NCBI RefSeq assembly: GCF_058153355.1
Contig: NZ_CM177019.1
DNA: 64,000 bases
Direction: 5' to 3' (one strand)
The notes beneath the pieces were generated by a model. That model was given only the letters and a program-made list of their open reading frames with translations, did not search any database and had not been told where the DNA came from. This document shows, one piece after another, positions 47,644 to 48,952 of the stretch. The number at the start of each line of letters is the position of its first letter. The first letter of the stretch is position 1. A program made the position numbers and the translations under genes.

Positions 47644-48952
47644 CTAACTCACTGATTTTAATAAGCCTCTTGTGTCACTTTGGTGACCATGGGACATCAT
47701 TGGGACATAATCTGCCAGCTTCTGATTCAGCATTGCGATCTGTTCTGCATTGCTGTCAGTCATCCATGCTCCGTATACATTGAACACCATCTGGGCACTT
47801 GCATGCCCCATCTGGCTGGCAATGAAGCTTGGATTTGCTCCGGCAGATAATGACCAGCACGCATAAGTGTGTCGTGACTGGTATGCCTTTCGATGCCTGA
47901 TGCCTGCACGTTTAATGGCTGTTTCCCATGAGTCGCCAATGGAATCTACCTTGTAGATAAAACCTACCTGTTTGCTTTTTCTAACCACCTGGGGGTTAAA
48001 TACGAAAGTACATTCATGATTTACTGAACGTCCATATTCACGTAGTTGAACCTTGATGTTGTGCTGCTTACCCAGTCTTGTCATTTCAGCCTGATTTTTC
48101 AGGACACTGATAGCGGGCTGGATAAGATGCACAACCCTGTTTGTACTTGCTTCAGTTTTAGGTAGAGTGAACTCACCGAGTTTCGTATAATTGCGCCTGA
48201 TAGTAATTGTTCCTGCTTTCAGATCGATATCTTCCCAGGCCAGGGAGACCAGTTCACCATGACGCATTCCTGTGTACACAGCCAATGACCACAGGTTTTT
48301 TGTCTGCTGATGCCGGCAAGCATCTATCAGGCGAATAAATTCGTCACGAGTTAGCGGATCTGGTTCTGCCCTGGCTCTTTTAAGAGGCTTAATTCCCTCG
48401 AAGGGATTTGCTTCTAAGTAACCGTGCAGCAAACTGAAACATTCCAGCGATTGTTGTCATGTAATAATTTACTGTGACAACGCTTCGTCCTTTTACTGGA
48501 GCTTTACCTTTTGTTGGATTTTGGTATCCGGTCAGCAAATCTTTCCTGATATACAGCAATTCCTCTTTGGTCACTGCTGATACCAGTCGGTTGCCACCAA
48601 TCTTCGGAACCATCATCCTTGCAATGGATTCATAGCGATTGAATGCATTTGCAGAGATTTCCATTCGTTTCAGATCCAGCCATTTTTCTTCAAGTTCTTT
48701 CACCGTAATTTCTTTTTTATTTACCCCAAAAGCCTTGAGGTTAGGAGAGTCAGGGAACTGCGCAGCATAATCAAAATTTCCTGTACGAATGGCAAAACAT
48801 ACAGATGTCCGCAGCTCTCCGGCGATCTTCCTGTTCTTGGCAGTGTCAGGGACACCAAGATTTTCCCTGACACGTTTACCTTTAAAATTAAACCAGATGC
48901 GTAATGTGCCACCGTGGTTTTCGACGCCTGTTGGATATTTGACTTTATCCAT
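47644..48952 (-). pseudogene. int: phage tyrosine integrase, split by a frameshift into 187-aa and 262-aa ORFs
   Basis: ORFs 48389..48952 and 47644..48432 overlap in different frames; C-terminal part carries catalytic-region motifs (HRKAYQSRHTYA ... NVYGAW). Confidence 0.8.

Follow-up and report, generated by a model that had tools for sequence, protein, structure and literature searches.

The analysed window is a 64,000 nt stretch of contig NZ_CM177019.1 (assembly GCF_058153355.1) that runs from host chromosome into a prophage. Its left 47.6 kb is ordinary Escherichia coli chromosome and carries glyW-cysT-leuZ, the flh/che/mot genes, argS, torYZ, cmoAB, yecN and yecE. This flank is colinear with complete E. 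coli genomes, to which it is at most 98.8% identical (positions 22700-47600; 5,426 genomes). The chromosome gives way to phage DNA at the 5' end of yecE, and the first two genes on the phage side are those for a tyrosine integrase (int) and an excisionase (xis). The coordinates of these and other features are collected in Table 1.

Table 1. Features of the yecE prophage and its chromosomal junction (positions in the 64,000 nt window).
Feature	Position	Strand	Description
yecE (DUF72)	46892..47662	-	Integration target; 5' end replaced by phage DNA; overlaps the 3' end of int
attL core CACACAGTTAA	47615..47625	+	Prophage/yecE junction; single copy in the window
int, whole (predicted pseudogene)	47644..48952	-	phiP27-type tyrosine integrase; 437 aa when intact; 1309 nt compared with 1314 nt normally
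C-terminal frame of int	47644..48432	-	TTG as first start codon, 262 codons; native from His178 to the end; catalytic domain
N-terminal fragment ORF of int	48389..48952	-	ATG start, 187 aa; arm-binding domain and most of the core-binding domain
5-bp deletion junction, GCTG[CAGAT]CACGG	48424..48427	-	From DNA alignments; exact point ambiguous within CA/CA microhomology
xis	49008..49244	-	Excisionase, 78 aa, DUF1233 family, intact; PF06806, E = 1.2e-32
Second lesion junction	49876..49882	-	398-bp deletion between 7-bp GCGCAAC direct repeats
tRNA cluster of the prophage	63218-63528	+	CAT (Met/Ile2-type), Arg-TCT, Thr-TGT, Gly-TCC
Class II holin gene, start	about 63820-64000		About 290 nt past the tRNA cluster

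The integrase locus comprises two minus-strand ORFs that share 44 nt and lie in different frames (ORF listing, 46.5-50.5 kb). The N-terminal ORF specifies 176 native residues, followed by 11 that are out of frame (RLLRSKSLRGN) and a TAA stop codon at 48391-48389. The TTG given for the C-terminal ORF is merely the first start codon in an open frame, and is no proof of translation. When the 437 aa integrase of E. coli N96 (WP_000362008.1) was used as a tblastn query, residues 1-176 matched 48952..48425 and residues 174-437 matched 48438..47647, both pieces showing 96-97% identity and being colinear, with 0 gaps and 0 stops. Two colinear, gap-free matches to one protein indicate that the ORF pair is a single gene broken once, and not a chance arrangement. 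Both ORFs of the split integrase described in the initial annotation were recovered exactly. At the nucleotide level, the locus is 95.8% identical to P27p01 of phiP27 and 97% identical to the N96 gene, and the int region is 96-97% identical to yecE prophages present in hundreds of E. coli genomes.

Pfam searches detected Arm-DNA-bind_2 (PF12167) at residues 7-70 of the N-terminal fragment (E = 1.3e-24) and Phage_integrase (PF00589) at residues 27-220 of the C-terminal frame (E = 7.3e-19; 68.6 bits, cut-off 27.1). In the intact 437 aa protein the same domains occupy residues 7-70 and 202-395, and there is a weak match to the core-binding domain Int_N at residues 84-193 (E = 0.0074, under the curated cut-off). 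The set of candidate catalytic residues is complete: R232 (YTGMRHGE), K267, R362 (YQSRHT), H385 (MGHAS) and Y395 (NVYGAW), as aligned to XerA/XerC-like structures. All five lie downstream of the break. A tyrosine (Tyr359) stands at the His position before Arg-II (H-x-x-R motif), as it does in intact members of the family. The DNA-binding and catalytic domains are not carried by a single continuous frame, the catalytic domain being in the +1 frame, and the locus is best read as a pseudogene within the tyrosine recombinase family PF00589 rather than a functional member. The features of a lambda-type, arm-binding integrase are all present (the PF12167 domain, an adjacent excisionase and an att core at the prophage end), while high identity to phiP27 Int and a core located within yecE place the locus in the yecE-targeting, phiP27 group.

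Alignment to intact homologous integrases located the indel as a 5-bp deletion. Six homologues were aligned, from phiP27, E. coli N96, E. coli FDAARGOS_944 and three Logan contigs. All six carry GCTGCAGATCACGG where the window has GCTGCACGG, and in a wider alignment the intact TTTGCTGCAGATCACGGTTAC corresponds to TTTGCTGCACGGTTAC, with one clean 5 nt gap that occurs only in the window. The missing pentamer may be written as CAGAT, AGATC or GATCA because a CA..CA repeat flanks the gap. Its loss takes out one GATC site and codons 177-178 (Asp177-His178), so that beyond Ala176 frame 0 enters the 11 foreign residues and the native sequence picks up in the +1 frame at His178. The initial annotation had placed the shift within 48389..48432, at a particular quoted string, and had remarked on the absence of a homopolymer; the junction falls inside both the interval and the string, and the sole repeat around it is the 2-bp CA on each side, which is a weak substrate for slippage. 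In every full-length E. coli match the corresponding stretch is 1906 nt long, compared with 1901 nt in the window. Re-insertion of GATCA produces an open 437 aa frame, the product of which differs from the FDAARGOS_944 allele by 1 aa in 387 and from phiP27 Int by 15 aa in 437.

Comparison of the intact protein with PDB chains (phmmer) aligned query residues 162-244 with residues 141-224 of lambda Int, and 188-255 with residues 125-193 of XerA. Residue 177 would then correspond to about residue 156 of lambda Int, at the end of the core-binding domain and before the interdomain linker, a placement that rests on weak alignments (the Int_N match and phmmer to lambda Int). The domains and alignments bear out the earlier identification of a frameshifted tyrosine integrase, and place the break inside the end of the core-binding domain, not at a clean boundary between DNA-binding and catalytic halves.

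The deletion allele is rare. A 63 nt query spanning the junction matched 276 of the 5,426 complete E. coli genomes searched, all over 68 nt, and none of the 276 carries the deletion. Exact-pattern scans found no instance of it in GTDB representative genomes, nor in JGI metagenome contigs. Four other public contigs, among them L008 (SRR30347327), carry an uninterrupted gene for exactly the restored 437 aa protein. L008 is 99.7% identical to the window over int-xis, with 2 mismatches and the 5 nt gap. Since the exact restored sequence exists intact elsewhere, the 5-bp deletion is the derived state, the only lesion in the gene and recent.

This pattern of a very rare allele (absent from the complete genomes, GTDB representatives and metagenome contigs just described) alongside an exact intact version on other contigs could also arise if the gap were a sequencing or assembly artefact, the gene being actually intact and the missing 5 bp a deposition error. 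However, the exact 187 aa and 262 aa products are both recorded on three contigs, all of them Logan assemblies built from SRA reads and the only records of these products, and one Logan contig, SRR31441161_11, is 100% identical to the window from 38389 to 57497 (19,109 bp). That same contig reproduces a second, larger deletion in the prophage, and platform errors do not typically remove 5 bp from sequence that is neither repetitive nor homopolymeric. The presence of the same allele in read-built contigs rules out an assembler-specific artefact. The window and the Logan contig may share a single source isolate or set of reads, in which case the contig excludes assembler error and not a culture-specific mutation. 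Taken together, a deposition error seems very unlikely to account for the gap.

The product of xis is 100% identical over 78/78 aa to the annotated protein WP_000528719.1. At the other end of int, the attL core departs at one position (G>A) from the core CAYGCAGTTAA published for yecE-integrating phages (PMC5592225). The substitution was considered as a second excision lesion and rejected, as N96, which has an intact int, carries the same variant; it is most simply viewed as a polymorphism. No attR or second copy of the core occurs within the 64 kb window, and the prophage extends past its right end (64000), which leaves attR and the late genes beyond the stretch covered. Residues 1-256 of N96 YecE align to 47662..46895 with 97.7% identity. 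The host frame of yecE runs on into phage DNA. In RefSeq, such lysogens are given a 256 aa YecE, the start of which corresponds here to an ATT codon, and the first standard start is a GTG at 47617.

The second deletion, 398 bp in length, lies 1.4 kb from the integrase lesion and fuses a truncated SPFH/Band_7 gene (residues 1-213 of 275) to a DUF5406 gene (residues 57-123). Its intact counterpart is found in contig L008, which carries the neighbouring genes intact and without this deletion. The prophage is decaying, as seen in this nearby deletion and in an independent IS600 hit in the int gene of its closest relative (see below). The visible gene order is immunity region, Rha/Ash regulators, replication genes, NinH, Q, four tRNAs and the start of the holin gene, and the visible early genes have kept the full length seen in close homologues, the sole exception being the SPFH/DUF5406 fusion. 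The tRNA cluster follows the gene for the Q antiterminator (62638-63015), and stx genes are absent between the cluster and the holin gene, which is their usual place in Stx phages. About 55% of the visible 16 kb of prophage matches phiP27, which indicates a mosaic genome.

Several other features were observed in the early region. Three consecutive genes for Rha/Ash-type regulators are found at 55149-55859, about 56689-57810 and 57807-58469. A 643 aa ORF (55879..57810, plus strand) was examined as an oddity and set aside, as only its C-terminal ~330 aa (Ash and Rha domains) look genuine. Opposite its first ~270 codons, on the minus strand (56076-56724), lies a gene pair specifying a TumE toxin and an HVO_A0114 (wHTH) protein, which is found with 100% conservation in another prophage, and the N-terminal extension of the ORF is probably not translated. 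In the early-left region, a small minus-strand ORF (51146-51364) is 98.6% identical to an annotated ParE-family toxin-like protein.

The explanation we favour, and hold to be very probable, is a recent and simple loss of function, in which a 5-bp deletion pseudogenised the int gene of a phiP27-like lambdoid prophage in yecE. The event is of an already-known kind, in an already-known integrase family, and mutation of the recombinase gene has been described as a route to 'grounded' prophages (PMC6379469). The five bases were most likely lost by replication slippage or misrepair between the two CA dinucleotides. Initiation at the native ATG would give the 187 aa product, in which the arm-binding domain and most of the core-binding domain are followed by 11 junk residues; lacking the entire catalytic domain, it could do no more than bind DNA. 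The 260 native codons further downstream would be left without a credible start signal. For a tyrosine recombinase to carry out excision, the protomer bound to the core and arm sites must itself have the catalytic domain (Arg/Lys/Arg/His/Tyr), so the prophage should no longer be able to make a functional Int. Without an Int of its own it would be 'grounded', despite the intact excisionase and attL core. We infer that self-excision has been lost; rescue in trans by a second, related phiP27-type Int elsewhere in the genome is possible.

Some activity might survive if the 187 aa N fragment and a separately translated C fragment were to associate non-covalently into an active recombinase. One complete Pfam domain is kept in each fragment, the break is near the linker between core-binding and catalytic domains, and for Cre recombinase there are reports of complementation between fragments. 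Expression of the C fragment is the first obstacle, as the only SD-like sequence before its TTG (48432) is a weak GGA at a distance of 9 nt. The frame has no ATG until Met231, directly before the catalytic Arg232, and initiation there would lose the start of the catalytic domain. A promoter search for the C-terminal ORF returned 2 sites compared with 3.3 expected, none placed to drive it. The N fragment, for its part, breaks off before the last core-binding helix is complete and bears the 11 foreign residues, and the split arrangement is conserved in no relative. Of the explanations discussed here, complementation between fragments appears to us the least probable.

Full-length protein could also be made if ribosomes changed frame within the overlap. 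A programmed frameshift was rejected. All homologues examined specify the integrase in a single frame, with no frameshift in any of them. The predicted fold of the overlap region is no more stable than that of shuffled sequences (MFE -25.4 kcal/mol, shuffle mean -26.7 kcal/mol, z = +0.35), and inspection of the sequence revealed no GGAGG-like, Shine-Dalgarno (SD)-type stimulator upstream of CUU-AGA or CUU-CGA. Leaky, compensatory +1 frameshifting in the 44 nt overlap, yielding some full-length Int, was considered separately. Frame 0 of the overlap contains two sites, CUU-AGA-A and CUU-CGA-G, in which a rare Arg codon comes after a Leu codon, and the +1 frame is open from 48432. The first site is similar to CUU-AGG-C, at which +1 shifts are known to occur in yeast Ty1, and E. 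coli ribosomes have been shown to shift by +1 at hungry or rare codons (PMC2790909, PMC5009743). A ribosome slipping by +1 on CUU-AGA would produce an Int of 435 aa with RLL in place of DHGYL. The deletion would then represent a 'savior indel', in which slow decoding of AGA or CGA lets a few ribosomes slip into the +1 frame and complete a near-native integrase of 435 aa; a savior indel combined with low-level frameshifting has a precedent in the thymidine kinase of HSV (PMC5009743). If this were true, the prophage would be almost, and not fully, locked in, and the leak could be modulated by its own tRNA-Arg(UCU).

The CUU-AGA motif, however, is an accidental product of the deletion, the native frame reading TAC TTA GAA, and no homologue uses a frameshift. 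It has neither an upstream SD-like stimulator nor, as the z score above indicates, a downstream structure, and at +1 sites that lack stimulation the expected efficiency of frameshifting is very low. Furthermore, the RLL replacement would alter a helix within the core-binding domain, and the prophage's tRNA-Arg(UCU) reads AGA, so that pausing would drop when it is expressed. We judge leaky frameshifting to be even more doubtful than a deposition error, and place the savior-indel reading of the deletion on the same low footing. Artefact, leaky +1 frameshifting and fragment complementation are each unlikely.

Under the favoured explanation, a simple loss-of-function deletion, the locus offers a snapshot of the earliest step of prophage domestication, with the exact intact ancestor allele still in circulation. 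Should the remainder of the prophage be inducible, an excision-defective copy would replicate in situ, which could kill the cell or package flanking DNA from the yecE-cmoAB-torYZ-argS-flh/che side, and such behaviour, if true, would bear on strain stability and gene transfer. For annotation, the consequence is that the locus should be labelled a frameshifted integrase pseudogene of a phiP27-like yecE prophage, and that the two ORFs should not be entered as separate proteins.

Among characterised phages, the locus most resembles the Int gene of the Stx2e phage phiP27 (P27p01, NP_543053.1), with which it shares the order attL-int-xis and insertion within the 5' end of yecE. With the 5 bases put back, the window integrase and those of the phiP27/yecE type have an equal length of 437 aa, and their 11-bp cores are one position off. 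Unlike phiP27 Int, the window copy cannot encode the full protein, owing to the 5-bp deletion at codons 177-178. A more distant parallel is lambda Int (PDB 1Z1B/1Z19/1P7D), which has the same layout of arm-binding, core-binding and catalytic domains and likewise a small excisionase partner. The match between the two proteins is colinear but weak (E about 0.005-0.008), their lengths differ (356 aa in lambda, 437 aa here), and the arm-binding domain of the window integrase, PF12167, belongs to a different Pfam family from that of lambda Int.

The closest relative among complete genomes is the prophage of E. coli FDAARGOS_944 (NZ_CP065613.1), which is also integrated at yecE and is 99.5% identical over int-xis. 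Its integrase is inactivated as well, by an IS600 near the 3' end of int and without the 5-bp deletion; another copy of IS600 is found between the DUF5406 and SPFH genes, inside the segment that the window has lost (FDAARGOS_944 coordinates, contig L002: 6245-8825 and 10037-11193). An IS600 in one and a 5-bp deletion in the other indicate that int was inactivated independently in two lineages. The chromosomal flank of the window is only 96% identical to that of FDAARGOS_944, compared with the 99.5% seen over int-xis. The prophage ends are far closer between the two hosts than the chromosomes are, which points to horizontal spread of the prophage or to recombination.

A similar course of decay has been described for the 'grounded' or cryptic prophages of E. 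coli (for example DLP12, Rac, Qin and e14; PMC6379469), in which mutation of the recombinase is likewise followed by deletions and IS insertions. Compared with these, the prophage in the window is at a very early stage, with a single frameshift in int. It still carries full-length xis, immunity region, replication genes and Q.
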